A stretch of 25,029 nt of DNA from a virus (IMGVR_UViG_2802429227_000004:1-25029); one strand, 5' to 3'; positions 431-22,759 are shown, numbered from the stretch's first letter. A program made the numbers and translations. The notes: a model not told the origin generated them from the letters alone.

Positions 431-500
431 AAATAAAGGTAAATAAAAAATAAATAGCCATAAATAGCTATAAATAGCTATAAATACATCTAAATACCTA
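431..500. repeat. Tandem degenerate decamer repeats (TAAATAGCTA-like, about 5-6 copies)
   Basis: taaatagcca / taaatagcta / taaatagcta / taaatacatc / taaataccta read head to tail at 451..500, with similar taaata units just upstream. Confidence 0.7.
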
Positions 501-513
501 TATCCCTTCCCTT

Positions 514-897
514 ATGGCTAGATTGCGAGAGGTGCTTAACGCGATTTTCAGCGCCCCCCGATCTGGAAAATCCAGAATCCCCAAATATCAGCAAGGAATT
601 TTCTTGCGTAATCAACATCGTTTTTACCTATTAAATCATTACACAGAAAGCCTTTCTGTAATGTCTCTCACTAAACTTTCACTAAACACGAGAATGATCG
701 GTTTTATGTCGGATCAGATGCTAGAAACAGCACCACGTCTCACAAGGGCTGTAAGCGATGAAACCAGTGTTTATGCGGGTGCAGGTCAAAATATAGGCCA
801 AAATCCATTTAACATAATAAACGTAATATGCACTAAGGAACACATAGAACGCCTTGAATTGATGTATCAGGGGAAAAGTGATGGATTTTTTACGTAG
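514..897 (+). CDS. Hypothetical protein (127 aa)
   Basis: ORF-track ORF; no convincing RBS upstream (cccttccctt before the ATG); no recognisable motifs. Confidence 0.3.
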   Translation: MARLREVLNAIFSAPRSGKSRIPKYQQGIFLRNQHRFYLLNHYTESLSVMSLTKLSLNTRMIGFMSDQMLETAPRLTRAVSDETSVYAGAGQNIGQNPFNIINVICTKEHIERLELMYQGKSDGFFT

Positions 898-1421: not shown

Positions 1422-1464
1422 GAGTGCTATGTGATGATTGGTAGTAACGGTAGGTCATAGTGAA

Positions 1465-1602
1465 CTACCCCCACAGAATTCTGTTAATCTTAACTTTTAA
1501 AGAGATTTTTACCCTAACAAAATTCTGTTACCCCACCCTAACAGAATTCTGTTAGACACCCCCACAGAAAACTGTTAGACACCCCCACAGAATTCTGTTA
1601 CC
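1465..1602. repeat. Iteron family 2: 5 copies of a C-rich flanked palindrome, CCCCCACAGAATTCTGTTA
   Basis: Copies at ~1465, ~1511, ~1531, ~1557 and ~1580; core ACAGAATTCTGT is a perfect palindrome, as expected for a dimeric DNA-binding protein site. Confidence 0.7.
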
Positions 1603-2160
1603 TATTAGATCATTTATTAAATTACTTATTAAATTATAATATTATATATTTATTTATATGATCTTTTGCCTTCCGGCGTTAGCTTCACTCTCTGGCAAGC
1701 AGCCTTACTCCGCTACCTTTCGGGCTTCGTGGCTGGCCCGTTCCGCTCACACCGAAAGCAAAGCGTTACTTTCTTCGTGTAACTATCGTTGGCGGTAACG
1801 CCCACGAAGAAATACTATTGCGCTGTGCGCAGAAGAGTAATCACCTAACCAATCATACTGATTGCTTACGTGTTAACTCTCTCTAACTCTTAATTACCCT
1901 CCTACATTTAATAACTCTCGTTATTCTCTGTAGTTGTGTAATTACTCGAAGAGAGAGCGGCTAAAGCTCAATTACACTCTGCTTTCCTCGTGTAATTTCA
2001 CTAAGCCTCAATACAATTCCACTTCCACATTCTGTAGTCGTGTAATTGTTTTCGGTGGAAAAGCCAGAGGCGACACCGAAAGAGAATTCTGATCTTATTA
2101 ATCTTATCTATCTTAGTTATCTTACTTATCTTACTTACTTTATCTACTTTATTATTAATA
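1603..2160. promoter_or_regulatory. Origin-associated non-coding region: AT-rich tract (1603..1670), structured GC-richer segment with inverted repeats, GTGTAATT/AATTACAC repeats, TATCTTA repeats (about 2095..2150)
   Basis: No credible ORF; inverted repeat ttcttcgtg...cacgaagaa near 1770..1815; repeated ttctgtagt(t/c)gtgtaatt units near 1925 and 2025; atctta x5 around 2100..2140. Confidence 0.4.
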
Positions 2161-3023: not shown

Positions 3024-3191
3024 ATGAGCGAAACCAAGAAACCAATTCCGCGCACTTACCTACACGTTGACCCTGAAATCTTCAAGGTTTTATTTGCTGA
3101 AGCCAAGAAAAGGCAAATTATGGTCAGTGATTTGATGTTAGAAATCATTACTGAAGCAGCAGAGAACATCAAACAAAAAAAGGGTAAGTGA
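3024..3191 (+). CDS. Small ribbon-helix-helix-like (CopG/Arc-type) putative regulator (55 aa)
   Basis: Not in ORF track (<60 aa). GAAGGAG RBS then ATG at 3024, TGA at 3189..3191. Translation MSETKKPIPRTYLHVDPEIFKVLFAEAKKRQIMVSDLMLEIITEAAENIKQKKGK has a beta-strand then helix pattern typical of RHH proteins. Confidence 0.45.
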   Translation: MSETKKPIPRTYLHVDPEIFKVLFAEAKKRQIMVSDLMLEIITEAAENIKQKKGK

Positions 3192-4318: not shown

Positions 4319-4726
4319 ATGGCAAAAAGAAAAAACAACGTTGTTAAGAAAATCGGTGATTCAGCTTCTCTTCTAAGTAAACCTAAATCTATTCTAAGAC
4401 GTAAAGACTTTAAAGAGCTAGTTACGCTCACCAAGCATAATAGCGCCCCTGGCGAATGGAAAACAGAGATCATAGAACATTCTCCCTCTGTGCCTTGTGG
4501 AGATGAATTTAACGCCTTACAAGAAATCTTATCTTCAACACCTGGCGTATTCTGGAAACCTAGAAAAAGAAAAGAGTATATTGTTAGTTCTGACGAACTC
4601 CGCAAATACCAGATTTTAGGATTTGAAGACTATAACCACTACGTCGGTTATCTCGCCACCAATGGCCTAAATAATTTAGTTCCTGAATTCCATTTAGATA
4701 ATGATGATCACTATGGAGACTTTTAA
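4319..4726 (+). CDS. Hypothetical protein (135 aa)
   Basis: ORF-track ORF, basic N-terminus; antisense ORF 4267..4605 treated as a shadow. Confidence 0.5.
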   Translation: MAKRKNNVVKKIGDSASLLSKPKSILRRKDFKELVTLTKHNSAPGEWKTEIIEHSPSVPCGDEFNALQEILSSTPGVFWKPRKRKEYIVSSDELRKYQILGFEDYNHYVGYLATNGLNNLVPEFHLDNDDHYGDF

Positions 4727-5127: not shown

Positions 5128-5345
5128 ATAGGGTGATTATTTTTCCTTTATTGGTTCGATATTAAAAATTCTTCTTGTCGTTAAAGGGGAGTAAAATCTC
5201 CGCTCCCCGCTTCTCCTCCTCCTTAAGTGTCATTATTACCTCTTTTTTCCTTTGTTATGCATACATCTTGGAGTATGCATAACATAGGGTAATTACATAG
5301 GTACAAGTTAATAAAAGGCGGCTCTAAATGCTGCCTTTTATTTTG
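5128..5345 (+). ncRNA. Candidate small RNA or structured leader/attenuator (about 215 nt) between promoter and intrinsic terminator-like hairpin
   Basis: Begins just downstream of the 5093 promoter; hairpin ggggag...ctcccc (~5186..5208); perfect palindrome ttatgcatac-N8-gtatgcataa (5255..5282); hairpin aaaaggcggc-tctaaat-gctgcctttt followed by a T-rich run (5313..5345); no convincing ORF on the + strand. Confidence 0.3.
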
Positions 5346-5406: not shown

Positions 5407-5619
5407 ATGTTGTTTTTAAATGATAAAGAGCAAATCATCAAGTATCGCGATGAAATGCTAAAGATCAATCCACAAATTACCGAAATGGTAGCTAAATACG
5501 CTGGGTGTTCTGTCGAAGAAGTGGAACGTTGTGTTGAAAAATATTTTTCTCCTTCTTCTCCGTCTACACCTTCCCTTAATGAATTAATCAAATTAAAAGC
5601 TAAGGAGATTACTAAATGA
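5407..5619 (+). CDS. Hypothetical small protein (70 aa)
   Basis: ORF-track ORF; 4 nt ATGA overlap with the next gene suggests translational coupling. Confidence 0.45.
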   Translation: MLFLNDKEQIIKYRDEMLKINPQITEMVAKYAGCSVEEVERCVEKYFSPSSPSTPSLNELIKLKAKEITK

Positions 5620-5978
5620 TTATTGATTTAGACACTCTATTTCCAGTTCGAAAGACTTTCACAGATATTGTAAGTTATTGTACTGATCCGTTTGCCTCTG
5701 TAGAAAGCAAGGTTTTTGCTTCTCTTCCTGCTGATGTTGAATGCGGCGACTTGATCACCAGAACTGGCGCTAAATATGTATCAGGAGATGATATCTATGT
5801 TGTTATGAGTGAGTTTTTAACGGCTGGAGACAACAAGCCTGTAGATGTGCTACGTAGCAATGCTGGCCTTGTCTGCATCAAAGCTGATGCGCTGAATGCT
5901 GTAAGTGAAGCAGCAAAAACAGCATTAATTAAAAAAGGCTTCCAGCTTGAAGGGTTCCACTCTGTTTTCACTTCTTAA
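5616..5978 (+). CDS. Hypothetical protein (120 aa), first gene of a putative structural-like module
   Basis: AAGGAG RBS; tightly linked to the 342 aa gene. Confidence 0.55.
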   Translation: MIIDLDTLFPVRKTFTDIVSYCTDPFASVESKVFASLPADVECGDLITRTGAKYVSGDDIYVVMSEFLTAGDNKPVDVLRSNAGLVCIKADALNAVSEAAKTALIKKGFQLEGFHSVFTS

Positions 5979-5996
5979 TAAAAGGAATAATAATAA

Positions 5997-7025
5997 ATGA
6001 TTCTAGGCAATGATTACGTTGATTTGATCCCTCTGTTCCAGGCACACAACACTAGAAATTATCTACTCTCTACCCTTGATTTTACGGATTCTGTAGGGGT
6101 TACATCTCATAAAGTAGCTGTTTCCCAGCTTGTCGAAAGCAACGAATCTCTCTTTAACAAAGAGACAAGCCGTTTTAGTTCTGAACACAATGTTACTAAG
6201 CGTGAACAAGGTAAAGAATGGCTTATTGAAATCCCGTATTTTCTTCGTGAAGATGTGATCCGTCCTTCTGATGTTCAAGGCAAGCGTAAGCCTGGCACTG
6301 ATTTTCAGGAAACACTCACTGATATCTATGCTGACTATGTTGCTAAACACCACGTAGCGTATCAGCGTACAAAAGAGAGCGTGTTGGCGGCTTCTTTGTT
6401 CTCTGGCAAAACTTACACGCCTAAAACTGATGATGTTCTTATCGAGTGGGGCAAGCTGTTTAACGTATCAGCTATGAAAGCCACTGTGAACGCTTCCAGC
6501 ACTGACACCACGAAGATTTTTAAAGAATTTGATCAGATTGCTACCAATATTTTTGAAATCACACAAAGCCAGGCGTCAGCGGTAGAAAGAATTGTTGTTT
6601 TCTGTAAACCGGAAGCCTTCTCTGCAATTCGATTCTCTGCGGGTATGGCAAACGCATTCCAGTATGTAAGCCCACTGGAAGAAGGGAACGTTGTGTATCA
6701 GCGTCGTGACCTGCTGCCAGGGGTGACAGCGTTCACTATTCCAGGAACTAACATTGATGTTATTAAACTGGTAGATCCGCTACATCTTGCACATATGACC
6801 GCAGACGCTGTAGCTGTGCCTAAATTCGCTAAAGGCTCTAACGTATATCAGAACATCTACGGGGCTGCTTCCAGCACCTTTGAACTGATTAATGCCGCTC
6901 CCGCTGAGGTTTATAGCTACAGCTATGAATCTTCTCGTGGTGATGCTGTTAACGTTGTTACAGAGAATAGCCAGATGGTTGTAAACCACGGTGTAGGCTT
7001 CTCTGTTCAAATCACTGTGAAATAA
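5997..7025 (+). CDS. Hypothetical protein (342 aa); tentative homolog of the HK97-fold major capsid protein family of T7-like phages (gp10-like)
   Basis: Long ORF with RBS. Segment RIVVFCKPEAFSAIRFSAGMANAFQYVSPLEEGN (DNA about 6585..6700) matches, from memory, the T7 gp10 region RVFYCDPDSYSAILAALMPNAANYAALIDPEKG (pattern FCxPxxxSAI...MxNAxxY...EG); similar size to gp10A. Not verified by any search. Confidence 0.5.
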   Translation: MILGNDYVDLIPLFQAHNTRNYLLSTLDFTDSVGVTSHKVAVSQLVESNESLFNKETSRFSSEHNVTKREQGKEWLIEIPYFLREDVIRPSDVQGKRKPGTDFQETLTDIYADYVAKHHVAYQRTKESVLAASLFSGKTYTPKTDDVLIEWGKLFNVSAMKATVNASSTDTTKIFKEFDQIATNIFEITQSQASAVERIVVFCKPEAFSAIRFSAGMANAFQYVSPLEEGNVVYQRRDLLPGVTAFTIPGTNIDVIKLVDPLHLAHMTADAVAVPKFAKGSNVYQNIYGAASSTFELINAAPAEVYSYSYESSRGDAVNVVTENSQMVVNHGVGFSVQITVK

Positions 7026-7043
7026 TATTTTAACGTGTAATAG

Positions 7044-7080
7044 AGGCGTGGCGTGTATTCACGCTTCGCCTTTTTTTATT
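7044..7080 (+). terminator. Rho-independent terminator candidate after the 342 aa gene
   Basis: ggcgtggcgtg-tattc-acgcttcgcc imperfect hairpin followed by ttttttt. Confidence 0.5.
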
Positions 7081-7111
7081 TATTTTTTAAATTTTGAGAG
7101 GTGATTAAAAT

Positions 7112-7315
7112 ATGGAAGTGATTTTGAAATCAAAAAATGGTTTACACGTACATTTAGATGCTAATGATTCTAGAGGCTTGTTAAATCTGAAATATCTATG
7201 TTCTCTTTTAGATGTTCCATATGAAGGCGTAAAAGCCCGTATGTTCAGACTAAACGAGAGTATTGATCAGGCTCTACACCATTTCTTAAGTAAAGAAGGT
7301 GGTAAAAATGATTAA
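7112..7315 (+). CDS. Hypothetical small protein (67 aa)
   Basis: ORF-track ORF with GAGAGG RBS region. Confidence 0.45.
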   Translation: MEVILKSKNGLHVHLDANDSRGLLNLKYLCSLLDVPYEGVKARMFRLNESIDQALHHFLSKEGGKND

Positions 7316-7329
7316 TAAGGGGATTTTAA

Positions 7330-9162
7330 ATGTTAGAAATTAACACTTCTAAAATTAAGAACACAGTTACATTTAGTGTAGATAAAGACAGCTTGAAAAA
7401 AGCGAAAGACTCTATTACAGGCTTAAAGAAATTCGCCGAAAATATCAAGCCAGCTAAGCTGAGATTTGATAGTGTCACTAAAGGCTATAAGAAAGCACAA
7501 AGTGAAGTAGACAAGATTGCTCAACAGAAAGCTAAAACAGAAAAGCAGAATCAAAGAGCACAAGCTGCCGCAGCAAGAGCACAGGCAAGGCAACAGCAAC
7601 AAATAGCAGCACGTAAAGAGAAAGCAGAATTAAAGCTCCTCGATGTGTCAAGCTCTATCAGTGCAATGCACCGCCTTTCTGTAGCTGAACAATACAAAGC
7701 TATTGCACAGGCGCGTGAGATAGCCAAACAATACGAACAAGGGGCTATCTCGCTTGCACGTATGAATAGTCAGATGAAACGCCTACAACAGCAACAACGT
7801 AAGATTAATGGCAACAGAAAAGCTCAATTAGCCCCCGTTAAGGGAGGATCAGGGAATTCCGCCACGATGGGCGCTCTGTTATTTGGAGGCGCTACGGCTG
7901 CCGCTGGCGTGATGGCTGTTAGTAAAGCCTCTGAATTTATGGCTAACAGCTTCGCTAACGCAGAGACGCAAGGGGAGCTAATTCAACGGGCCAAGCTGGG
8001 CGGTGTAGACGTTAACCAGATGTATAATATTACAGAATGGGCGTATAAAAACGGCGTTGACTCTATGATGGGTGATCAAGGGGCTAGGAAATACCTGGAT
8101 CAGATGAAAGATGTTAGGGAACGTGCCGCAAAATCCTATAGTGAAGCTGAATTGGTGAAAGACAAGAAAACCGGAAAATCTGAATGGAAAGGCGGTGATA
8201 ACGCTATTAATGAACTTCTAAACATCGGTGTTATTAACAAAAGCGACCTTAAAAAATTTGCTGATAATCCGGCTGGATTAATTTCTAAGGCTGTTAATGG
8301 AATGATGAAAAAAGGGTTTTCAGACTCCCAAATTGGACAACGTTTAGAAGACCTGGGCGATGATTTGATGCTTACGTCAAAATATTGGCAACGTTCCGTT
8401 AAAGATGTACAAGAAAGTATTAATCAGCAAAAAGCCTCTGGAAAATGGCTAACAGAAACACAGCAAGACTCTATTGTTAAATTCAGAGAACTAAACAGAC
8501 AGCTTTCACAGCTTTCTGATGCAAGACAAGTAGCATTCGTAGACGGCTTTATGAAATCTCTTGATCCAAAAGTAACGGAAGAGTTTATGAAAAACCTTTC
8601 TAATCTCACTCCGTATTTTACGAAGCTGGGAGAAGCTACAGGAAGTCTCTTTGAGGCCATTATGAAGATTGTAAACTGGTTTAATCGTAATGATGATAAG
8701 ACAGATGCTATTCAGAAAAATTTAGGTGATGCACCGCCATTAAGCAATGACGGAATGAAACAGCATCTTTCTAATCTCGTTCCTGATCAATATAAAGGCG
8801 CTGGCACTGCAACAACAGCACCTGATAATAGTCATTCTCTCTTTAATACGATTAAGGGATGGCTTTTCGATGATAATGCTTCTTCTGTGTCAGATGTAAA
8901 AATGTCAGTCAATGAAGCACCGATAAGCAATCTCAAACAGGGTGCTTTAAATAATCTTGCAATGACAACTCCGGCTTATAATTTATCTCCTGTGTTTAAT
9001 CTGAATCCTACATTTGAAGTGGTAACAGAGGTTCCTCTTACTATTAATTCAGACACATCAAGATTAAGCGATTATGTGGATTTTACAGCGAGAGCAAGTC
9101 GGGATAGCTTCTTGAAATCATTAACATTAACCAGCTTATCAGGACAATCTAACGGCGGGTAA
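7330..9162 (+). CDS. Hypothetical large protein (610 aa): N-terminal K/Q/A-rich coiled-coil region, Gly/Ala-rich hydrophobic segment, then C-terminal globular region; tape-measure-like or ejection/internal-virion-like architecture (tentative)
   Basis: AAGGGG RBS; AQAAAARAQARQQQQIAARKEKAELK coiled-coil-like stretch; GGSGNSATMGALLFGGATAAAGVMAV hydrophobic segment; no Walker or nuclease motifs seen. Confidence 0.6.
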   Translation: MLEINTSKIKNTVTFSVDKDSLKKAKDSITGLKKFAENIKPAKLRFDSVTKGYKKAQSEVDKIAQQKAKTEKQNQRAQAAAARAQARQQQQIAARKEKAELKLLDVSSSISAMHRLSVAEQYKAIAQAREIAKQYEQGAISLARMNSQMKRLQQQQRKINGNRKAQLAPVKGGSGNSATMGALLFGGATAAAGVMAVSKASEFMANSFANAETQGELIQRAKLGGVDVNQMYNITEWAYKNGVDSMMGDQGARKYLDQMKDVRERAAKSYSEAELVKDKKTGKSEWKGGDNAINELLNIGVINKSDLKKFADNPAGLISKAVNGMMKKGFSDSQIGQRLEDLGDDLMLTSKYWQRSVKDVQESINQQKASGKWLTETQQDSIVKFRELNRQLSQLSDARQVAFVDGFMKSLDPKVTEEFMKNLSNLTPYFTKLGEATGSLFEAIMKIVNWFNRNDDKTDAIQKNLGDAPPLSNDGMKQHLSNLVPDQYKGAGTATTAPDNSHSLFNTIKGWLFDDNASSVSDVKMSVNEAPISNLKQGALNNLAMTTPAYNLSPVFNLNPTFEVVTEVPLTINSDTSRLSDYVDFTARASRDSFLKSLTLTSLSGQSNGG

Positions 9163-9195
9163 TTCCCGCCATAACATTACAAGGAAATTATTATT

Positions 9196-9909
9196 ATGGC
9201 GACCGCCGGGATTTTAACCATACGTGCAGCAAATACTCCAGAACAACACGTTCAGGCTGTTTACAAAGCAGAACAAGATATAAACTCTACAAAAAACGAA
9301 AATAGCAAAGCTAATAAAACAAAAGGAGAAAATGGATTTGCTATTGTTACCAGTGGGCTGGCATCTTCTGGCAATGACGTTTATGAAAATTATATGGCAC
9401 TGGCTTTTGACAGTGTAGACGATGTGAACGTGAGACGTTCGGCAGATGTTACAAGCTACCCCGTAGAAAATGGTGCTACTGTGTCTGATCACGTTCAAAT
9501 TAAAAACAATAAGTTTTCTCTTAAAGGTAGGATCACTGAAACACCGATTAAAAGCGATCCTGGCTTGCTAAAGAGTGCAGGGGTGAACGGGAACAGAAGA
9601 TCATTAGCTATTGATTACCTGAATCAGATTATGGACAGTAGACAGCCTTTTCTTCTTGTTACAGAAAATAAAACTTTTGAGAACGTTGTTTTAACAGGCA
9701 TCGAATACACAGAAGAGGCAAGCGAATCCCTGGTATTTGATCTTAGCTTTGAGCAGATCAGGCTCGTTTCGTATGGCACTGTAAACACTGTAGCTATCAA
9801 AACACAGCCATCTAAGAACATCGGGGCTAATATGAAAAAACGTGTTAACACTGAAAAATCAAGTAGTGAAGGTGAAGACACTATTACTCCTGCCTTTAAA
9901 CAGGAATAG
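9196..9909 (+). CDS. Hypothetical protein (237 aa), last gene of the + strand operon
   Basis: AAGGA RBS; no signal peptide; followed by an inverted repeat shared with the convergent integrase gene. Confidence 0.55.
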   Translation: MATAGILTIRAANTPEQHVQAVYKAEQDINSTKNENSKANKTKGENGFAIVTSGLASSGNDVYENYMALAFDSVDDVNVRRSADVTSYPVENGATVSDHVQIKNNKFSLKGRITETPIKSDPGLLKSAGVNGNRRSLAIDYLNQIMDSRQPFLLVTENKTFENVVLTGIEYTEEASESLVFDLSFEQIRLVSYGTVNTVAIKTQPSKNIGANMKKRVNTEKSSSEGEDTITPAFKQE

Positions 9910-9990: not shown

Positions 9991-11325
9991 CTATGGCGTT
10001 GTTTTACGCCTTAAATTTGATTTTTTATTGATTGATAAGCCTTTCTCTATTTCAGGGTAGCGTAGAAGCTCAATATATTTTTTAAGCTCTACTGGAGAAG
10101 CTGCATTCTTGCTATATGTGCGGAATGTCTCTGTATTACCGCGTGTATGGCCCAGGAGAAGGGCGATCCTGTCTTCTGGAATTTGATTTCGATCAAGAAG
10201 CTGTGCTACTCCGTGTCTCAGAGAATGAAACACCTTCCTTTCTGTTCCCTTTTCCCCTAAAGCCTTTCGTTTAGCCCTGGTAAATCTCTGCGTGTGCCAC
10301 GTGGAACGCTTGCCGTCTGCACGTTCTGTGATGCTGGCGTGATAGAACAAAAAGCCATTATGAGGCTTTTCACGCAGCGACAACACCAACGGAGTGATAA
10401 GGCTATGTACAGGCACAACACGTGCCGCAGCTTTCGTTTTTCCCTGTGTGATTTCAAAACACAGCACACCTTCGATCTCTTTCACATCGTCTATTGTGAG
10501 ACTTGCTATCTCATTGATCCGCATACCTGTATATAAACCGATAAGACACAAAGCCATCATTTCTTTGTTTTCTGCTGAATTACCGGAAAATACTTGCAAC
10601 ACCTGCAATAGCTCTTTGTTAGAAAATGCCTCGTAGCTCTCTCTACTTTGTGCCACATCAAGCCTATGCCCTCGCCAGGGGGAGAGCGCCCTTTCTGGTG
10701 CATCGTGGTAACGTGATGAAGCTAACTCCCATAGCTGGGCCATTGGGCTGATATAATTTGCAATTGATTGTTGTGAAAGGGTTTTTTGCATGTGTTCAAT
10801 CCAGCCTGTAACAGTGGTGCGGCTCACATCTTGCAATGCAATATCAGGCTTTTTACGGTAGGAGAGAAACATCTCTACCGCTTTTCTTGCCTTAGCTAAA
10901 GTGGCTGGCTTCTTCTTCGTGCTGTTAATTGTCAGGTAGATTTCAAGAATTTTAAGCAATGACGGACACGAAGACGCTGTATCTTGCATTCTGGTAGCTG
11001 TTTTGGCGTATTTAGCCTTACTGCGTAACAGCTCCAGCGTGTTCTCTATTGTGCTGTTTACAGGAGCGACACTCTCGCGTAAGCAATGGTATTCATCTGC
11101 AATCTGATCACGCTTTCTACGTGCAACACGAAGGTTACTTGTATGCAGACTCCTGACAAACGTCCTTTTTCCTTCAAAAAAGGGCTGCATATACACAGGC
11201 AGCGTGATCCTTAGATAGTAGTTACCGTAAGAATCACAGATTATGTATTGATTGGGCTTGTATCTCATAAACTCCCCGGCTAAAGTGTCGGAGCGTTTGT
11301 AATGTGAAAATTGATTGTAACGCAT
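9991..11325 (-). CDS. int: Tyrosine site-specific recombinase (integrase), 444 aa as given; alternative start at the second Met (about 11268)
   Basis: C-terminal catalytic signature: GMRINE (Arg), HSLRHGVAQ (His-x-x-Arg), LLGH (His), TFRTYSK (Tyr nucleophile). Confidence 0.85.
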   Translation of the reverse strand: MRYNQFSHYKRSDTLAGEFMRYKPNQYIICDSYGNYYLRITLPVYMQPFFEGKRTFVRSLHTSNLRVARRKRDQIADEYHCLRESVAPVNSTIENTLELLRSKAKYAKTATRMQDTASSCPSLLKILEIYLTINSTKKKPATLAKARKAVEMFLSYRKKPDIALQDVSRTTVTGWIEHMQKTLSQQSIANYISPMAQLWELASSRYHDAPERALSPWRGHRLDVAQSRESYEAFSNKELLQVLQVFSGNSAENKEMMALCLIGLYTGMRINEIASLTIDDVKEIEGVLCFEITQGKTKAAARVVPVHSLITPLVLSLREKPHNGFLFYHASITERADGKRSTWHTQRFTRAKRKALGEKGTERKVFHSLRHGVAQLLDRNQIPEDRIALLLGHTRGNTETFRTYSKNAASPVELKKYIELLRYPEIEKGLSINKKSNLRRKTTP

Positions 11326-11447
11326 AGAAAATGATGATTTTTTCTATAAGATTCAATCAATTAGTAATGGTCGTAGGTGATGGCATTAACACGAGATTAA
11401 TCGAGTGTTTTACTCCTATTATCGGCACCATTCTAACGTCTCCCCAA

Positions 11448-11597
11448 GTCTACTCAAGTATTTAAAAAACTCTTATAATCCGCATGTTAGCGCCCCTTTT
11501 AGTCTTTTGATGTCTACTTAAGTACCCCAAAATCTACAGTCAATTGGGGGTACTTTTGGGGGTATTTGCTGTTCGGTTTAGTGGAGGTACCCCCAAG
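11448..11597. repeat. Direct and inverted repeats in the 271 bp spacer between the two integrase genes (candidate att core or integrase binding sites)
   Basis: gtctactcaagta (11448..11460) and gtctacttaagta (11512..11524); inverted pair taccccaaaa (11523..11532) / ttttgggggta (11553..11563); extra ggtacccccaag at 11586..11597. Confidence 0.5.
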
Positions 11598-12811
11598 TGA
11601 AACTCAATGCCCGTCAAATAGACACTGCCAAGCCAAAAGAGAAGGCTTACAAGCTGGCTGATGGTGGTGGTCTGTATCTCTTGGTAAAACCTAGTGGAGG
11701 AAAATATTGGCGCTTCAAATATCGTGTAGCTGGTAAAGAGAAGCTGTTAGCACTAGGTGTGTATCCTGAAGTTACCTTGGCTGATGCTCGTGCAAAACGT
11801 GAAGAAGCTAAAAGGGGGATCGCTGGGGGTATCGATCCGATGGAAGCGAAACGAGAGGAAAAGATTGCCCGGGAAACGCAGTTAAACAACACCTTCAAAG
11901 ATATTGCCCTTGAGTGGCACAGCAGCAAATTAAAAAAATGGTCTGCTGGTTATGCTTCAGACATCCTCGAAGCCTTCAACAAAGATGTGTTCCCTTACAT
12001 TGGCAAAAAACCAATCGCCGAAATCAAACCACTTGAACTGCTGAATGTGCTGCGGCGCATCGAGGGGCGCGGTGCTACCGAAAAAGCCAAAAAAGTGAGG
12101 CAGCGATGCGGGGAAGTTTTCCGCTATGCAATTGTCACTGGACGTGCTGAGTATAACCCTGCACCGGATCTCACCAGCGCGATGCAAGGTCATGAATCTA
12201 ATCATTATCCTTTCCTCACAGCCAAAGAATTACCTGATTTTTTCAAGGCATTGTCCAGTTACTCAGGAAGTGCATTGGTTGTTATGGCGGCTCGTCTACT
12301 GATTATCACCGGTTTGCGGACTGGCGAACTGCGCGGTGCATTATGGGATGAAATCGATCTCAACAAGGCTATCTGGGAGATACCTGCTTCACGGATGAAA
12401 ATGCGTCGCCCTCATGTGGTGCCTTTGTCTAAGCAGGCTCTTTCGCTTATTGGGCAGATTAAAGAATTAACTGGCAATTATCCGCTTATGTTTCCCGGCC
12501 GTAATGATCCAAGGAAAACAATGAGCGAGGCTAGCATAAACCAAGTATTTAAACGCATCGGCTATAACGGAAAGGTTACTGGTCATGGATTCCGGCACAC
12601 CATAAGCACCATTTTGCATGAGCAGGGCTATAACACCGCGTGGATAGAGACACAGCTCGCACACGTCGATAAAAACTCAATTCGTGGCACATACAACCAT
12701 GCGCAATATCTGGATGGTCGCCGGGAGATGCTCCAGTGGTATGCCGACTATATGGATTCGCTCGAGCATGGCGGAAATGTGGTGCATGGTGAGTTCGGAA
12801 AATGCGGGTGA
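11597..12811 (+). CDS. int: P4-type tyrosine integrase (404 aa), GTG start
   Basis: N-terminus KPKEKAYKLADGGGLYLLVKPSGGKYWRFKYRVAGKEKLLALGVYPEVTLADARAKREEAK is the hallmark arm-binding domain of P4-family integrases; catalytic HGFRHT ... QLAHVD ... RGTYNHAQY. Confidence 0.9.
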   Translation: MKLNARQIDTAKPKEKAYKLADGGGLYLLVKPSGGKYWRFKYRVAGKEKLLALGVYPEVTLADARAKREEAKRGIAGGIDPMEAKREEKIARETQLNNTFKDIALEWHSSKLKKWSAGYASDILEAFNKDVFPYIGKKPIAEIKPLELLNVLRRIEGRGATEKAKKVRQRCGEVFRYAIVTGRAEYNPAPDLTSAMQGHESNHYPFLTAKELPDFFKALSSYSGSALVVMAARLLIITGLRTGELRGALWDEIDLNKAIWEIPASRMKMRRPHVVPLSKQALSLIGQIKELTGNYPLMFPGRNDPRKTMSEASINQVFKRIGYNGKVTGHGFRHTISTILHEQGYNTAWIETQLAHVDKNSIRGTYNHAQYLDGRREMLQWYADYMDSLEHGGNVVHGEFGKCG

Positions 12812-12909
12812 CTGGTTGAGTATACAGTAGTAGACTTTGAGCACCTAAAAAGGCTGATGCAAACAGAGCTGGCTCGGCCTTAACATTAGACCGCTTGAAG
12901 GGGGAGAAT

Positions 12910-13626
12910 ATGCCAATTGTGGAAAACATTCCTGACTTATCCCACTGGCGAACAATACAGGAGTTTTCTATCACCCAGGCCGCTTTATTGTTGGCCGGAA
13001 TTGATCCTTATGATTACCCTACTCTTGAACATGTCAGAGATAATAAACATGAACGTTGGAAAATGGCATGGGGGTTGGCTAATGGAATGGTAACAGCCAT
13101 CCGTCGTGGTGTCTTAACTCCTGTTGAATGTACCTCTGAAATAGTTGAATACGATAATTGGGGAAATGTTTGTGATATTGAGTACAAACGTCTGACATCA
13201 GCGCAACTGACCGATCGTGCATATGAGATAAGCAAGGATAAAACTTTAATTAGTCGCCATTCTTTATATGAGTGGATAAAAAATGAGAGCGTTGATTTTG
13301 CGAGATGCCCTCGCCCTATACCTGTTAAGGAAGTTAATCCGCCAGCAATCATTGAATCATCTCATCAGGTAATTAATCCTGACGAGTATTTGTGTACTTA
13401 TGGGCATAAGAGTGATGGGTTGGAGTATGTGCAGGATGCTATAAGAGAACTATGGTCGACGTATGACCCAGATGACCCACAGACGGCTCCGACAGAGCAT
13501 GAGGTACTTGAATATTTGAAAAAACGGGGGGCGGGTTCTAATGTTGCTAGGGCTGTGAATCTGATTTTAAGGCCTGAACATCTGAAGCGTATTGGTAGAA
13601 GACCAAAAAAACAAAAAGTTAAATAG
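12910..13626 (+). CDS. Hypothetical protein (238 aa) between int and alpA
   Basis: ORF-track ORF 12895..13626 begins at a TTG; ATG at 12910 preceded by AAGGGGGAG is preferred. No recognised motifs. Confidence 0.6.
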   Translation: MPIVENIPDLSHWRTIQEFSITQAALLLAGIDPYDYPTLEHVRDNKHERWKMAWGLANGMVTAIRRGVLTPVECTSEIVEYDNWGNVCDIEYKRLTSAQLTDRAYEISKDKTLISRHSLYEWIKNESVDFARCPRPIPVKEVNPPAIIESSHQVINPDEYLCTYGHKSDGLEYVQDAIRELWSTYDPDDPQTAPTEHEVLEYLKKRGAGSNVARAVNLILRPEHLKRIGRRPKKQKVK

Positions 13627-13881
13627 TGGTCGCTATTCCAGAAAAATGGTGGTTTCCTTTCAAAAAAAAGTAACCACCAATGCAGATTAAATCGTAAGAA
13701 CAGTAATTTTTCTTCGTGTTTCACGTCAGCATGATACTTAAAATAGTAAACGCCATTATTAAAAAAAGGTGGAGCTATTTCACTGAAATGGTATTCGCCA
13801 TTCATAATGGTAAGCATCTATAAATATCACTTTTCTTAATGCAAGCTATGTACACCTTTATAGACGTTACAAGGTGAATAT

Positions 13882-14079
13882 ATGGCAAACTCTCTTATTC
13901 GTTTAACGGAAGTTCAGCGTAGAACTGGATATAGCAAGGCATGGATTTATCGCCTTATGGGGCAAGGTAAATTTCCTGCATCAGTTAAAATTGGCTCGCG
14001 AGCTATTGCTTTCGTTGAGAGTGAAATTGACGAGTGGATTAATCAGCGTATTGCGGAATCACGCGGAACAGCTACCTGA
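13882..14079 (+). CDS. alpA: AlpA-family phage transcriptional regulator/excisionase-like protein (65 aa)
   Basis: LIRLTEVQRRTGYSKAWIYRLMGQGKFPASVKIGSRAIAFVESEIDEWI matches the AlpA HTH family; position just after a P4-type int; AAGGTGA RBS. Confidence 0.85.
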   Translation: MANSLIRLTEVQRRTGYSKAWIYRLMGQGKFPASVKIGSRAIAFVESEIDEWINQRIAESRGTAT

Positions 14080-14157
14080 TTAAATGGCTACGGGGCCAGA
14101 AGCCCCAACTATCCACTAGCAAATAAAAAGTAACTTAATTCGATAGCAGGAGTTTTT

Positions 14158-15006
14158 ATGAAACAGCGAAAAACGCCCGTACAGGGGCAGGGCTTCGTTC
14201 GGCCTGAAAACCAGAATCTGCAAAATTTCGGCGAAATTATCCCGGTTATTTCCGGCGTTATTGGCGGACGTGAAACCAATATTGTTAGCGCCAGAGCGTT
14301 GCATAAGGCGCTGGGTGTGAAGCGTGATTTCACAACCTGGATTAAAGGACGCATTGATGAGTACGGATTTAAAAAGGGCGTGGATTTTGAAGTTGTAGAT
14401 AATTTGTACTTTGATTCCCCGAAACGGGGGAACCAAAGTGTAAATATTGAACAGTTTGATTTTGATTGGACAACAAAGCGCGGCGGTGATCGTCGCAGTG
14501 AAGACTATTTGATCTCCACGAACATGGCGAAAGAACTGGCGATGGTCGAGCGCACCGAACAGGGCCGCGCCGATCGTCAGTACTTCATCAAATGCGAGGA
14601 GGAGCTACACAAGGTAGCGCCAGTGCGTTCCGCAGCGTTACGCCGGGAACTGAAAGCCCGTATCTCCGTTGCCAGCTACTTTAAGCCGATGTGTGCCGCG
14701 CTGGAGGCGTACCGGGCTGAACTGGGTAAAAACACACTCCAGCACCACTACACCACGGAAGCCAATATGCTGGCGCGTATCGTGCTGGGTGGCATGACTG
14801 CAAAACAGTGGACGCAGGCGAACGGCATCACAGGCGAACCACGCGACCACATGAGCACGTTGCAGCTTGAGCACCTTTCTTACCTTGAGCAGAGCAATAT
14901 CACGCTGATTGAGTTAGGCCTGGACTACCACCAGCGGAAAGCTGAATTAATTCGTCTTTCGCAGCGTTGGTTAGCCCGTCGCATGGAGGAAAACAGCCAT
15001 GTGTAA
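14158..15006 (+). CDS. Phage antirepressor-like protein (AntA-like N-terminal domain, KilA-C-like C-terminal region), 282 aa
   Basis: Segment VSARALHKALGVKRDFTTWIKGRIDEYGFKKGVDFEV resembles AntA/Rha-type antirepressor N-terminal domains; AGGAG RBS. Confidence 0.65.
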   Translation: MKQRKTPVQGQGFVRPENQNLQNFGEIIPVISGVIGGRETNIVSARALHKALGVKRDFTTWIKGRIDEYGFKKGVDFEVVDNLYFDSPKRGNQSVNIEQFDFDWTTKRGGDRRSEDYLISTNMAKELAMVERTEQGRADRQYFIKCEEELHKVAPVRSAALRRELKARISVASYFKPMCAALEAYRAELGKNTLQHHYTTEANMLARIVLGGMTAKQWTQANGITGEPRDHMSTLQLEHLSYLEQSNITLIELGLDYHQRKAELIRLSQRWLARRMEENSHV

Positions 15007-15420
15007 CGCTCTGACCGTTACAAAAAGAGAAAGCGCCCCGTTGCCGGAGCGCCTTTGTGAACGAATAGCCTACTGCGCCATATTGCTTACTGTCTACGAG
15101 GCAGATTATAGCGTTGTGGTCGCACAGAGTGAAGGCGCTGATCACCGTTACTACAGCACGCCAGAAATGCAGAATATTTTGCTGCAAAATGTCGTTGGTC
15201 ACGCTGTCCGGAAAGCAAAAAATTTTGCTGGTGGCGCGACTGATGCGATTTTGTCAGGTCGCAAGGTGATGATCAATCTGATGTCTAATTTCGTTCTGGA
15301 TAAAACAAAGGCGACCGCAGAGGGCCACCAGTGGGAAAGCTACACACTTGAACACATCGCCAACAATGCCAGATTTGCGGCTGGTGGGCAATGTGATCAG
15401 TGTGCTGGCTTGCTGGTGGG
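14999..15420 (+). other. ORF of uncertain extent; only about the first 130-140 codons of the 512 aa ORF-track call look protein-like, and the 3' end is undefined
   Basis: Start overlaps upstream stop as ATGTGTAA. After about codon 140 the translation becomes Cys/Ser/Arg-rich low complexity and runs across a well-supported minus-strand gene (15679..15984) and into gene 16172..16537 in the same frame. Confidence 0.25.
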
Positions 15421-15678
15421 CTATTCCTGCTCTTTAACATTGCCATGCCGCGATGTTTTCCAGGTATGCGACCCCATTTTTGTGCGCCTGTACTCTTTAA
15501 GGAATTTCTCAAGGATAAACGCACAGGGCGCGAATCTGTCTGACTCATATTCGTACGCTATCTTTCTGCGCTGTCTTTTCCGTGCCGGTGATGGTGTATT
15601 GGTCGATTCTTTGTTGGTCATTCTGTGTACCTGTAAAGCAATGCGCCGGAGTTCCTCACACCACGGCGATGATAGTTA

Positions 15679-15984
15679 TTATTCTGATTCTTTGGCCTTG
15701 CGGCGCTGGAGTTCTTCACGTGCGACGGTGACGAGCTGCCCGATCTCCTCGACAGCTTTGACTCCGATTTTTTCCACCTGCGCCAGTGCATTGAGCGAAG
15801 AAACCAGGGGATTTTCTCCGCTTCCTTCTGCCTGGCGGCGGGCGATCTCACCACGCATGGCGGTTACTATGAATCCGGCGTTGCTTTCGCCGTCCAGTTT
15901 TACGGATTCCATGCCTTCAAAAGCATCATGTGGGATACGAATTGAAATCTGTTTTGATTTGTCGTTGATAGTGTTTTTTGCCAT
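15679..15984 (-). CDS. Ribbon-helix-helix-like DNA-binding protein (101 aa), candidate repressor divergent from the replication operon
   Basis: AGGAGA RBS 6 nt upstream of the ATG at 15982..15984 (ORF-track call 15679..16023 uses an upstream Met without RBS); KQISIRIPHDAFEGMESV strand-helix pattern. Confidence 0.65.
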   Translation of the reverse strand: MAKNTINDKSKQISIRIPHDAFEGMESVKLDGESNAGFIVTAMRGEIARRQAEGSGENPLVSSLNALAQVEKIGVKAVEEIGQLVTVAREELQRRKAKESE

Positions 15985-16171
15985 GTGCATTCTCCTAAAC
16001 AAAAGATGTGATTCAGTATACACAAAAAAGAATCACAAAAAATACTTGACCTGTGATTCAGTTAAATTTAATTTAAATCACACCTCAGTAAGAGGATATA
16101 AACGACAACGCCCCGAACTGTTTGCGGCAGTAGCGGGGCGTCTAACCAAACCGTTAAATGAGGTAACGATT
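15985..16171. promoter_or_regulatory. Divergent promoter/operator region with TGTGATTCAG repeats
   Basis: gatgtgattcagtatacac (~16005), gaatcacaaaa (~16030), cctgtgattcagttaaat (~16049), aaatcacacc (~16075); TTGACC -35-like element at ~16045. Confidence 0.5.
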
Positions 16172-16537
16172 ATGGCTGGGGCACAGCATACCCAAACTCA
16201 CCCTAAATTTATATACACCTTCCTGGCGGTGCACCGTGATTGCATGGCTGACGGTAAAAACACTGTTCATGTAGCCGCCGATACGCTGGTTGATGCCTGC
16301 GAGATGCTCAATGACATGGGCTATATCTCGGCAACATGGAAAGGGCGCGAAGAAAACACGTTGTTTATTCAGAAATGCGAAAACAATTTTATCTGGCGTT
16401 TTATCGCCCTGAGTACGGCACAACCGCGCGTGATTCACATCGAGGCCACCAGCGAACAGGAAGCACGCCAGCAATCTCCTGATGGCTGCGTGATGGTATT
16501 CGCTGCCCGTATTCGCCAGGAGGTGGAGCATGTGTAA
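16172..16537 (+). CDS. Hypothetical protein (121 aa), first gene of the small-gene/primase operon
   Basis: GAGG RBS then ATG at 16172; in the ORF track this is the in-frame tail of the 14999..16537 ORF. Confidence 0.6.
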   Translation: MAGAQHTQTHPKFIYTFLAVHRDCMADGKNTVHVAADTLVDACEMLNDMGYISATWKGREENTLFIQKCENNFIWRFIALSTAQPRVIHIEATSEQEARQQSPDGCVMVFAARIRQEVEHV

Positions 16538-16754
16538 TGCAACATGGCCTGATGCAGCGGTAGACGCTATCAAAACGCTGATGGATTCACTTATTGAGAT
16601 TTCTGCTATCGCTGGTGTGGCGCATAAACACGCAGCCAGAGAATCAGAATGCATCTCCCATTATTTAGCATTTGTGCAGCTGAAAGCCGATCAGGCACTG
16701 GATAAGGCCGGAAAAATTATCATGGCTGATGTACAGGAGGTGCACCATGCATAA
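16530..16754 (+). CDS. Hypothetical small protein (74 aa)
   Basis: Start overlaps upstream stop as ATGTGTAA (16530..16537). Confidence 0.55.
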   Translation: MCNATWPDAAVDAIKTLMDSLIEISAIAGVAHKHAARESECISHYLAFVQLKADQALDKAGKIIMADVQEVHHA

Positions 16755-17112
16755 CCTGTCAATTTCTGACCTTAACAGCATTCAGTTTGACGAGATATTT
16801 TCCGGGCAGCTACTGGTTAACGTGGAGAATGGACGCGTGGTAAGTAATTATCACCTGCCGGATGGTGCAATTGCCGGAAGCGTTGAAGCATTGCTGGAAC
16901 TGGCGGAACGTGCGCGACTGATTAAGCCGTCAACGTGCCATCACGATGATGATCTGCATTTTACCGGGTGTATGGTGAGTCACTACGAAAACGGCGTTGA
17001 AGTATCCTGCGAACGTCTGCGTGATGATTGCTGTTTCGGCACACTGCCGGAATTTATCGAATTGCTGACCAGTTGCGGTTATCAGGTCATTCAGGGGGGT
17101 AAACATGCGTGA
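16747..17112 (+). CDS. Hypothetical protein (about 121 aa)
   Basis: GGAGG RBS; ATG at 16747 overlaps upstream stop as ATGCATAA; ORF-track call starts 18 nt earlier. Confidence 0.55.
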   Translation: MHNLSISDLNSIQFDEIFSGQLLVNVENGRVVSNYHLPDGAIAGSVEALLELAERARLIKPSTCHHDDDLHFTGCMVSHYENGVEVSCERLRDDCCFGTLPEFIELLTSCGYQVIQGGKHA

Positions 17113-17338
17113 TGATCGTTTTAATTCCCTGAAACAGGAGTTTGATGGCGCACCGGAAGATACATCGGGCGCATTGTTGAGCATTGCTGACATGATGAAA
17201 GCTGCATATTTTCTTATCAATACCAGGGGCTACAAGTCAGAGGGTGAAATGATTCTTAGTATTGCGTCGGACTATGCTGAATATGTGGCAGAGACGCGTT
17301 ACAGAAGAAAATCTCTGGAGGATGTAAGCCATGCATAA
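17105..17338 (+). CDS. Hypothetical small protein (77 aa)
   Basis: Start overlaps upstream stop as ATGCGTGA (17105..17112). Confidence 0.55.
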   Translation: MRDDRFNSLKQEFDGAPEDTSGALLSIADMMKAAYFLINTRGYKSEGEMILSIASDYAEYVAETRYRRKSLEDVSHA

Positions 17339-17531
17339 TCATGAAGCGCATGTACCCGTAGTGCTTAATGTGCCAGATGATTTCACCGGACGCGTGCTGG
17401 TTTACCTTGATAAAGAAAAAGTGAAATCACAATGCCGACTGAAAAGTAATGAGATTGTGGGTTCTCCTGAATTTTTTTCTGAACTCTGTATTCGTGCAGA
17501 AATAAAACCGGAACTGCTGACAGGAAAATAA
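17331..17531 (+). CDS. Hypothetical small protein (66 aa)
   Basis: Start overlaps upstream stop as ATGCATAA (17331..17338). Confidence 0.55.
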   Translation: MHNHEAHVPVVLNVPDDFTGRVLVYLDKEKVKSQCRLKSNEIVGSPEFFSELCIRAEIKPELLTGK

Positions 17532-17535
17532 AACC

Positions 17536-17826
17536 ATGAAAAGGAAAAATTCTGGCTTTACTGCCAGCGGTCTCTCTCGGCCTGAAATCAGACACGGAGA
17601 TATTTACCGCGACACCAGACGTGGGGGACGAGTGGTTATTCGTCACGTTACGCCAGGCAATATCACCTACCGCCGTGAGGCTTACGAATATGACTGCGTA
17701 ATGCCGCGCCGTCAGTTTGAGCGTGATTTTATTCTGGTGGAAAACAAACAACAGGCAGTGGCGAGACGTGCAGCCACGAATATTAAAAAAATCCGGGCAA
17801 TGTTGGTTGCGGGAGGTAAGAAGTGA
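17536..17826 (+). CDS. Hypothetical basic protein (96 aa) immediately upstream of the primase
   Basis: ATG 5 nt after the upstream stop; 4 nt GTGA overlap with the primase gene start. Confidence 0.55.
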   Translation: MKRKNSGFTASGLSRPEIRHGDIYRDTRRGGRVVIRHVTPGNITYRREAYEYDCVMPRRQFERDFILVENKQQAVARRAATNIKKIRAMLVAGGKK

Positions 17827-19628: not shown

Positions 19629-19655
19629 TACGAAATTTATAAGCTGAAACGTAAA

Positions 19656-19991
19656 GGTAGACGGTTGGTAGACAGATTCACTTAACCCTCTACCAACCAT
19701 CTACCAATTAATATTTTGAATTATAAAGATATTTTCAATGTAGTAGAGAGGTAGACAGTTATTTCTATATTCCTAAACCACGGGGGGTATATAAAAAACA
19801 GATAGTTAAGGGGGCATTTTTTAAATTTCTCTTTTAACTGTCTACACTGTCTACCATTTAGTAAAAATCATTAATTATCAATGTATTAATGCGGTAGACC
19901 GTTGGTAGACAGTTTGCAGATTGTTTTTTTGTTATGTGTTAATAACATTAAATAAATCAATCAATTATATCGGTAGACAGTTGGTAGACAG
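19656..19991. repeat. Iteron-type origin: about 6 direct and inverted copies of GGTAGAC(A/C/G)GTTGGTAGACAG
   Basis: 19656..19675 direct; 19689..19704 inverted; 19750..19760 half site; 19839..19856 inverted; 19893..19912 direct; 19972..19991 direct; separated by AT-rich DNA. Confidence 0.75.
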
Positions 19992-20011
19992 TTGTAACGA
20001 TGGGGCAAAGC

Positions 20012-20826: not shown

Positions 20827-20960
20827 CAGAGGATGGGATTCTCTTGGTTTTTTGTTGATGCTTTCTGAGGAAATCTACTACGTTGCTGAGCAGATGAATA
20901 TTCAATTGCATCTGGGTTCCTGATAAGATTAATCTGAATATTTTCATTTGGAATAGGGAT

Positions 20961-22103: not shown

Positions 22104-22113
22104 ACAATCCGTG

Positions 22114-22145
22114 CAAAGCCCCTTAGTAAGGGGCTTTTATATATT
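22114..22145 (+). terminator. Rho-independent terminator after the lipoprotein gene
   Basis: aagcccc-ttagtaa-ggggctt hairpin followed by ttat. Confidence 0.65.
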
Positions 22146-22745: not shown

Positions 22746-22759
22746 CAGAAGGGATCATC

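Follow-up and report, generated by a model that had tools for sequence, protein, structure and literature searches.

An integrative element of Escherichia coli that carries capsid, tape-measure and tube-initiator genes: a candidate satellite of phi92-like phages

Organization of the element at thrW

The window analyzed here is the complete stretch IMGVR_UViG_2802429227_000004:1-25029, 25,029 nucleotides (nt) in length, the left half of which corresponds by megablast to a known Escherichia coli chromosomal island adjoining proA and the tRNA-Thr(CGT) gene thrW. This island is an integrative element with a short operon of virion genes. Its limits are defined by attachment (att) repeats: the last 20–25 nt of thrW recur 12,034 bp downstream, between the integrase of the element and a second, P4-type integrase. 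The left site, attL, is thrW itself and lies ~605–630 nt to the left of window position 1, and the recurrence forms attR (Table 1). The window begins 604 nt inside the element, which measures 12,034 bp in the reference locus. In strain 10159, the 12 kb unit is the sole insertion at thrW, a standalone case that confirms the unit. The GC content of the element is 38.7%, close to the 37.5% of phage phi92, compared with 50.3% in the flanking E. coli genes.

The element has only four virion genes, each of them intact: those for the decoration protein, the major capsid protein, the tape measure and the tail-tube initiator. Labels assigned by the Prokaryotic Genome Annotation Pipeline (PGAP) to genes of the element are restricted to 'major capsid protein', 'phage baseplate protein' and 'hypothetical'. 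Pfam and PHROG profiles gave no match to a portal, terminase, protease, tube or sheath protein among all open reading frames (ORFs) of at least 55 amino acids (aa) in the element, and no relaxase or mobilization gene was detected among its ORFs. A first-pass annotation of this DNA had located the ORFs of 120, 342, 610 and 237 aa correctly, and the iteron replicon and tyrosine integrase that it named are likewise confirmed, the iterons being five repeats of 23 bp at about 1459–1602; an ORF of 67 aa also belongs to the gene set. Its statement that portal, terminase, protease and tail genes are all missing holds for the head machinery and fails for the tail, which is represented by the 610 aa and 237 aa proteins. 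An incomplete set of virion genes, combined with att repeats, an integrase, iterons and a Rep-like protein for its own integration and replication, is the constitution expected of a satellite.

Table 1. Features of the element, in window coordinates
Feature	Coordinates	Strand	Evidence or remark
Tandem 10 bp repeat ATAAATAGCT, five copies, immediately 5' of block 1	450..502	+	Tandem Repeats Finder (TRF)
Block 1, putative mimic of the Stephanstirmvirinae genome-terminus site	513..590	+	blastn, alignment
Block 2, inverted repeat TTGGCA-N23-TGCCAA	1044..1078	+	inside the direct terminal repeat in phages
Five 23 bp iterons (ACAGAATTCTGTTAGACACCCCC) followed by an AT-rich stretch, probable replication origin	1459..1660	+	TRF, repeat search
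55 aa ORF	3024..3191	+	99% nt identity to gene muut_153 of Justusliebigvirus muut (blastn)
Rep-like (Rep-O-like) winged-helix protein, 217 aa	3243..3896	+	Pfam, PHROG
Basic 135 aa protein, conserved family-wide	4319..4726	+	family comparison
Hairpin with T-run (terminator-like), ~60 nt 5' of the structural operon	5313..5345	+	other elements have comparable hairpins
70 aa ORF, first gene of the structural operon	5407..5619	+	dN/dS 0.09–0.15
gpD-like capsid decoration (cement) protein, 120 aa	5616..5978	+	gpD-like beta-rich fold, adjoins the capsid gene
Major capsid protein, HK97 fold, PF03864 (lambda gpE type), 342 aa	5997..7025	+	Pfam, PHROG, PDB
Terminator-like hairpin 3' of the capsid gene	7043..7067	+	hairpin search
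67 aa ORF	7112..7315	+	conserved core LLDV.Y..V+QRIFRG, helix-turn-helix (HTH)-like
Tail tape measure protein, 610 aa	7330..9162	+	homolog of phi92 gp134
Tail-tube initiator (Dit-like), 237 aa	9196..9909	+	homolog of phi92 gp135
Tyrosine integrase (DUF6538, SAM-like and catalytic domains)	9991..11325	-	Pfam, PHROG
attR, repeat of the thrW 3' end	11406..11430	+	repeat comparison with the reference locus

Capsid and decoration proteins

The 342 aa protein matches Pfam family PF03864 (Phage_cap_E) over residues 17–341 of 342, with an E-value of 2.8e-14 and a score of 53.3 bits against a cut-off of 22.9, and it matches the major head protein family phrog_29 at 1.7e-16. Among solved structures, the Pakpunavirus P7-1 capsid (9zbi, 5.5e-11) comes closest to it, and it aligns end to end with HK97-fold phi92 gp124 at 22% identity. 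On these profile and alignment matches, we assign it as an HK97-fold major capsid protein of the lambda gpE/Pakpunavirus/phi92 type (PF03864). The first-pass annotation had recognized the block FCKPEAFSAI...MANAFQY...EEG, which is indeed present in the protein, as a sign of the T7 gp10 capsid family. The capsid assignment is borne out by PF03864, phrog_29 and 9zbi, and an HK97-fold profile search, proposed at that stage as a check, returned a full-length match. The T7 lineage is not: there is no T7-like match in Pfam, PHROG, PDB or tblastn searches, and a relationship to gp10 is ruled out by profile, structure and BLAST evidence that all leads to PF03864. With a capsid of the lambda gpE/phi92 type, the point that a T7-like capsid would be unusual for an integrative element falls away.

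The 120 aa protein pairs a gpD-like beta-rich fold with a gene directly beside that of the capsid protein, which identifies it as a decoration protein. It has no phage match by tblastn, and its hhalign comparison with the phi92 decoration protein gp123 is not significant, with only a C-terminal FTS shared between the two. Both the decoration family of the elements and gp123 (record L002, 7205–7597) end in ...FTS, and residues T119 and S120 are invariant in the element family.

Tape measure and tube initiator

The 610 aa protein is related to tail tape measures by three kinds of search: it matches phrog_16051 at 3.6e-53, PDB chain 21vq_V (Phi92_gp134) at 2.2e-38, and the 659 aa gp134 of phi92 by BLASTP at 7e-33, with 55% identity over the N-terminal 66 aa and 28% in the middle. 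The protein is thus homologous to a tape measure confirmed by a virion structure, and its gene lies just 5' of the tube initiator, which together identify it as the tape measure. It had been described as tape-measure-like or ejection-protein-like from its architecture; the former term applies, and the ejection-protein reading is ruled out by the tape-measure matches in PHROG, BLASTP and PDB searches.

The 237 aa protein is 60% identical to phi92 gp135 and matches PF21821 at 3.4e-29. Among solved structures, it matches 21vq_N at 2e-78, 9cuy ('Tube initiator protein') at 2.7e-13, and Pam3 gp17. This homology to structurally defined proteins identifies it as a myovirus tail-tube initiator. Between the capsid and tape-measure genes lies the 67 aa ORF, which shows no similarity to phi92 gp133 and may encode a small DNA-binding protein or regulator. 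In phi92, the gene order runs from gp123 (decoration) and gp124 (capsid) through at least eight genes for head completion, sheath, tube and chaperones to gp134 and gp135. The island looks like the phi92 gp123–gp135 module stripped of all else.

A phage genome-terminus sequence in the left arm

The non-coding left arm carries a sequence, block 1, that is shared with the ends of phage genomes. Stephanstirmvirinae genomes generally end in direct terminal repeats (DTRs; PMC12695924). The core of block 1, TTGCGAGAGGTGCTTAACGCGATTTTCAGCGCCCCCCGAT at 523–562, is split as TTGCGAGAGGTGCT|TAACGCGATTTTCAGCGCCCCCCGAT (the bar marks the terminus boundary) and followed by CCCCAAATATCA. All 40 of its 40 nt are identical in phages phi92, Antha and W22, and Klebsiella phage KP2025 and Citrobacter phage Tr1 share the first 26 nt without change. 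The phi92 record annotates the left repeat (DTR-L) at 1–343, and its boundary at 343|344 falls inside the block 1 core, as GGTGCT|TAACGCG. The record of phage BME3, whose termini were set with PhageTerm and whose repeat is 342 bp (PMC12210895), starts at AACGCGATTTT (AACGCGATTTTCAGCG...), one base off the phi92 boundary. The terminase cut in the element is accordingly predicted from this alignment at 536|537 or 537|538. By this identity, the element appears to carry the terminus recognition sequence of its presumed helper.

The other repeat boundary reads ...AGTAGGCT|CAACAAATAGG in both phi92 and BME3, AAGGTGCT|CAAC in Tr1 and AAGTGGCT|CAAC in KP2025. The two edges of the ~343 bp DTR are alike, GGTGCT|TAAC at one and GTAGGCT|CAAC at the other, with AGGTGCT at both in Tr1 (records L040 1–360, L041 3271–3613, L042 1–345, L035 2500–2900, L038 and L039). 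The shared GGTGCT|YAAC-like sequence at both ends suggests a terminase cut consensus, which is not stated in the phage papers that we consulted.

Block 1 is conserved across the element family. An nhmmer profile built from the phage block 1 sequences alone finds plus-strand matches 5.1–6.9 kb 5' of the capsid gene, with E-values from 1e-19 to 1e-3, in elements of E. coli, Kluyvera, Buttiauxella, Klebsiella, Citrobacter and several metagenomic lineages. The conserved positions are GTGCT(T/G)AACG ... CCCC ... AAATATC, and block 1 of the Klebsiella pneumoniae element carries the bases specific to Klebsiella phages (CCCCCATTTT.AAA). A second shared sequence, block 2, is common to phi92, Antha, W22, KP2025 and six elements (L009, L014, L030, L032, L033 and L034); because it lies inside the DTR of the phages, it is a probable protein-binding site.

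Two further observations concern these non-coding regions. A 127 aa ORF at 514–897 begins exactly at block 1, has no family matches and is of doubtful reality; the phage counterpart of this sequence is non-coding, with merely tiny spurious ORFs annotated. The phage non-coding DNA around the terminal repeat contains several copies of GATAATGATTATCATT (L035 2565–2593, 2760–2788, 3617–3636 and 3675–3694), a sequence closely like the E. coli Fur-box consensus, which hints at iron/Fur control or at a site for a phage regulator.

DNA shared with Stephanstirmvirinae

The tape measures of four divergent elements served as tblastn queries: those of the E. coli types 1 and 2, that of K. pneumoniae and one from a clade in which the tape measure is 25% identical. 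Each of them matches the same 134 phage records, all of which are Stephanstirmvirinae (Justusliebigvirus, Phapecoctavirus and relatives). The K. pneumoniae tape measure is 40–42% identical over its C-terminal two-thirds to Phapecoctavirus proteins, including that of Klebsiella phage ZCKP1. Several records of ~146–150 kb named 'Campylobacter phage' (e.g., MG065639 and MG065650) match in the same manner as E. coli phi92-like phages; they are probably mislabeled or were grown on a host other than the one stated.

The non-structural arm of the element points to the same phages at the nucleotide level. By blastn, two coding segments are 87–99% identical to Stephanstirmvirinae DNA, and a non-coding block of 46–78 nt within 513–590 is common to ~60 Stephanstirmvirinae genomes. 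The first coding segment is the 55 aa ORF, and its 99% identity with a gene of phage muut shows recent DNA exchange with the phage group. The second encodes the N-terminal domain of the Rep-like protein, with ~97% aa and 87% nt identity to QNJ49226 of Phapecoctavirus Mt1B1_P17, a protein composed of two HTH_36 (winged-helix) domains and T5orf172.

Family, distribution and selection

A search for homologous islands, which the first-pass annotation had recommended, recovered 112 loci with a complete capsid gene in at least 10 genera of Enterobacterales. Full-length capsid relatives (342–348 aa) occur in E. coli at 95, 89, 76 and 71% identity, and further relatives in Citrobacter, Enterobacter, Cronobacter, Kluyvera, Buttiauxella and Scandinavium; in Klebsiella the identity is 56% (one cluster comprising 721 member sequences), in Sodalis 42% and in Serratia 37%. 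Wherever the contig is long enough, all of the 112 loci have decoration, capsid, small-ORF and tape-measure genes in this order, and an integrase closes the element. The family occupies at least three tRNA sites: besides thrW, a K. pneumoniae member of 13.9 kb lies at tRNA-Gly(CCC) and a Buttiauxella member of 13.8 kb at tRNA-Leu(CAA), both with att repeats and each with a different integrase. The structural module is found in 527 of 5,426 complete E. coli genomes, with at least 80% query coverage in 287 of them, always in the chromosome and at up to three copies per genome; the prevalence of the element is about 5–10% of complete E. coli genomes.

Pairwise ratios of nonsynonymous to synonymous substitution rates (dN/dS) are 0.10–0.13 for the capsid protein, 0.08–0.22 for the tape measure, 0–0.13 for the tube initiator and 0.17–0.24 for the decoration protein. 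The comparisons extend to copies in which dS is saturated, and the ORFs are intact there as well. These low ratios show that the structural genes are kept by selection. The tape-measure and tube-initiator genes evolve faster than the capsid gene and are swapped between elements; fast change and swapping of both tail genes fit continual adaptation to helper variants.

A satellite reading and its alternatives

The account that we favor, and regard as fairly probable, is that the element is a phage satellite of Stephanstirmvirinae, the phi92-like virulent myoviruses of enterobacteria with genomes of ~148 kb. Satellites such as P4, with the cos site of its helper P2, and the cos-type phage-inducible chromosomal islands (PICIs) classically carry the packaging or terminus site of a helper and no terminase of their own. 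Possession of such a site in block 1 would explain the missing terminase. An element of 12–14 kb cannot fill a 148 kb head, so the capsid and cement pair is best explained as encoding a purpose-built small shell. The simplest reading of the tape measure and tube initiator is that they substitute for lumen components of helper tails, a substitution that could both favor particles of the element and spoil those of the helper. Dependence of a capsid-bearing element on a helper had been raised from the gene content alone; it gains support from the att-bounded unit, selection on the genes, synteny, terminus mimicry and the 87–99% identical DNA shared with the phages.

The life cycle would then proceed as follows. 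Upon infection by a helper, the element would excise and replicate from its iterons. Its capsid and decoration proteins would assemble around the helper portal into a shell sized for 12–14 kb, possibly of about T=4 by analogy with P4 (11.6 kb). The helper terminase would recognize block 1 and package the DNA of the element. The particle would be completed with the neck, tube, sheath and baseplate of the helper, and the element would add the two proteins of the tail lumen, the tape measure and the tube initiator, which would probably also divert or spoil helper tail assembly. In a new host, the integrase would insert the DNA into a tRNA gene. Beyond the identity of the genes, we infer every step of this scheme, mobilization included.

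Several points count against the satellite reading. An attP junction was not found in IMG/VR or in metagenome contigs, none of the 24 whole metagenome contigs is circular, and the same is true of the Logan contigs of 11–12 kb; a contig of 12,139 bp simply ends where the att sites lie. Of the two DTR-boundary sites the element has exactly one, the second motif being absent, and block 1 could serve another cis role, such as promoter or origin, besides or instead of packaging. The capsid protein has no close relative in sequenced phages by tblastn; at 22% identity to phi92 gp124, its co-assembly with the portal and scaffold of a helper is something we infer, and no scaffold gene was identified in the element. 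The tube initiator, present in many clades, is replaced by short ORFs in others.

The chief alternative is that the element is an anti-phage interference island and is not itself transduced: its structural homologs would be poisonous or decoy subunits and block 1 a decoy for the terminase, shielding the host from phi92-like phages while the island spreads by other means. Its structural proteins are homologous to those of the helper yet diverged, the swapped and fast-evolving tape measure and tube initiator look like products of an arms race, and the element is frequent in both E. coli and Klebsiella. Known satellites, including P4, the Staphylococcus aureus pathogenicity islands (SaPIs) and the PICI-like element (PLE), also interfere with their helpers. 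Nevertheless, no known defense family was detected with PADLOC (the sole match to PADLOC-DB is a marginal one to RmrA, E 0.003, on one 120 aa ORF). At least three tRNA sites and many genera call for a route of transfer, yet no conjugation or mobilization genes were found, and the matched pair of capsid and decoration proteins and the 12–14 kb size fit the building of a container better than poisoning. We consider interference in place of transfer unlikely. The two are not mutually exclusive and usually coexist.

The element might instead be the decayed remnant of a prophage of phi92-like or related myovirus type, with a few structural genes kept by chance and mostly vertical inheritance. The gene order does match that of phi92 minus the intervening genes, and the IMG/VR 'viral' calls are all prophage-style predictions from isolate genomes. 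Chance retention is at odds with purifying selection on every structural gene, with ORFs that stay intact where dS is saturated, and with the same reduced set in 112 loci across many genera, different tRNA sites and different integrases. A decayed prophage would also not be expected to have its own replicon with module swapping and a precisely retained cis site. Descriptions of Stephanstirmvirinae moreover present them as lytic, with direct terminal repeats, and not as prophages (PMC12210895, PMC12695924). We regard this explanation as very improbable. Least probable of all is an integrative plasmid-like or mobilizable element that picked up phage cargo and spreads without a helper phage: it has in its favor the iteron replicon with Rep and the deposition of a distant analog of 13.7 kb as a circular plasmid, and against it the lack of any relaxase or mobilization gene detected with Pfam and PHROG, a supposed cargo that forms the best-conserved syntenic core of the family, with the variation lying in the replicon, and a terminus mimicry that it leaves unexplained.

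Comparison with known satellites

Capsid-forming PICIs (cf-PICIs; Alqurainy et al., bioRxiv 10.1101/2022.09.08.507074) resemble the element in being small integrative islands of Enterobacterales, ~12–15 kb in size, that encode their own HK97-fold capsid protein rather than remodel the capsids of a helper and take the rest of the virion from a helper. They differ in that they possess a full head and packaging set (portal, protease, head–tail connectors and small terminase) and steal tails only, whereas the element is without portal, protease, connector and terminase and has a decoration protein, two tail-lumen proteins and a helper terminus site. Unlike the helpers of cf-PICIs, its presumed helpers are large virulent myoviruses. 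The cf-PICI marker set of portal, prohead protease, connectors and small terminase was undetected in any ORF of the element by Pfam and PHROGs.

Phage P4 is likewise an integrative element of ~12 kb with its own replicon, a helper packaging site (cos) and a dependence on small capsids, and its decoration-like protein Psu has a counterpart in the decoration protein of the element. In contrast, P4 re-sizes the capsid protein of its helper by means of the external scaffold Sid and has no capsid, tape-measure or tube-initiator gene, and its helper P2 is temperate, whereas the presumed helper of the element is lytic with direct terminal repeats. No Pfam or PHROG families matching the P4 markers sid, psu, delta, the alpha primase-helicase and epsilon occur in the element; a D5-type primase-helicase is found only in the neighboring second island.

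The PLE of Vibrio cholerae, with helper ICP1, and the phage-inducible chromosomal minimalist islands (PICMI) of Vibrionaceae (PMC10803314) are chromosomal satellites of virulent phages that replicate on their own and hijack the virion of a lytic helper. PLE uses the helper coat protein with its own scaffold TcaP, and PICMI, devoid of capsid genes, is packaged in the form of concatemers. Both are without capsid protein, tape measure and tube initiator and have no sequence relationship to the element; no homologs of their markers (e.g., TcaP and RepA of PLE) are present among its Pfam and PHROG family matches. The Stephanstirmvirinae structural module itself is similar in gene order, capsid (22% identity), tape measure (28–55%), tube initiator (60%), terminus sequence and GC content. 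A phi92-type phage nonetheless has ~250 genes, including portal, terminase, scaffold, sheath, tube and baseplate, whereas the element has four virion genes together with an integrase, att sites and an iteron replicon. By analogy, the element would work most like a hybrid of a cf-PICI, with its own capsid, and P4 or a cos-PICI, with a copied packaging site, to which the tail-lumen genes add a new feature.

The sole match to the capsid protein in the plasmid database is NZ_CP020521.1, a circular record of 13,689 bp from E. coli strain 190 ('plasmid unnamed4'). In this record, a small ORF precedes the gene for a capsid protein of PF03864 type. Further genes encode a tube initiator, a protein for tail completion, a tape measure of 706 aa (phrog_5255) and an HTH protein of the Rep-O-like kind, and iteron-like repeats lie at 13259–13340. 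Its proteins are merely 24–28% identical to those of the window, and its tail genes resemble those of a different, PhiTE/rV5-like myovirus lineage, the tube initiator being closest to PhiTE 9cuy (9e-35). It further differs in having the extra tail-completion gene, no annotated tyrosine integrase and no phi92-type block 1, and in being deposited as an episome. It may represent a sister satellite family in episomal form. The same odd repertoire in a second lineage, tied to a different myovirus group, argues that the combination is a functional design.

Replication module, regulatory features and neighboring island

The left arm of the element is mostly non-coding. Six TTACACAG-type repeats lie upstream of the iterons, between 638 and 1419, and the iterons of the element are absent from the pieces of phage sequence that were compared. 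The Rep-like gene is the most variable part of E. coli elements that are otherwise 95–99% identical, being 32–55% identical or absent (loci L015–L029). To judge from these alignments, the replication module is swapped often, even between near-identical E. coli copies.

The basic 135 aa protein has no phage homolog that we found, and its structure model is unusable (predicted local distance difference test, pLDDT, 53; predicted template modeling score, pTM, 0.20). It falls into 322 clusters at 90% identity, mostly from Klebsiella, compared with 53 for the capsid protein; the extra clusters reflect either faster evolution or its occurrence in related islands without the capsid gene. The terminator-like hairpin stands alone 5' of the structural operon, with no obvious conserved promoter across genera. 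No Rfam RNA family matches within the element.

Directly after attR, positions 11597–25029 of the window are occupied by a second island with a GC content of 45.7%. Its genes encode a P4-type integrase (Arm-DNA-bind_3, Phage_int_M), an AntA-domain protein, a D5/DUF5906 primase-helicase (17823–19628), a ProQ/FinO protein (20000–20542) and many unassigned products. It resembles a further satellite- or PICI/P4-like island, arranged in tandem with the first one at thrW. Its position in other strains is taken by the vat autotransporter island or is empty.

Implications for phi92-like phages and their hosts

No description of the element was found in the full-text literature searched. We see a roughly even chance that it represents a new satellite class, including the episomal sister NZ_CP020521.1, that lives on virulent myoviruses of the phi92/rV5 supergroup with its own decorated mini-capsid, replaced tail-lumen parts and the use of a helper terminase through a copied DTR cut site. 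If so, it would be the first known satellite with proteins for tail length and tube initiation, and an example of a selective satellite, making its own shell and tail-core parts and stealing the portal, motor and outer tail. Two questions follow: by what means a capsid protein of foreign origin would nucleate on the portal of a helper, and for what purpose a parasite would carry a tape measure of its own. The comparison has also defined GGTGCT|YAAC as the likely consensus for terminase cutting at either end of the terminal repeat in Stephanstirmvirinae.

The element would likewise be the first satellite known for therapeutic phi92-like coliphages. Phages of this kind (Justusliebigvirus and Phapecoctavirus) are popular candidates for therapy against extraintestinal pathogenic E. 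coli (ExPEC), avian pathogenic E. coli (APEC) and Klebsiella. Hijacking or sabotage of these phages by an element so frequent in complete E. coli genomes, and common in Klebsiella, would affect the outcome of therapy, host range and gene transfer.

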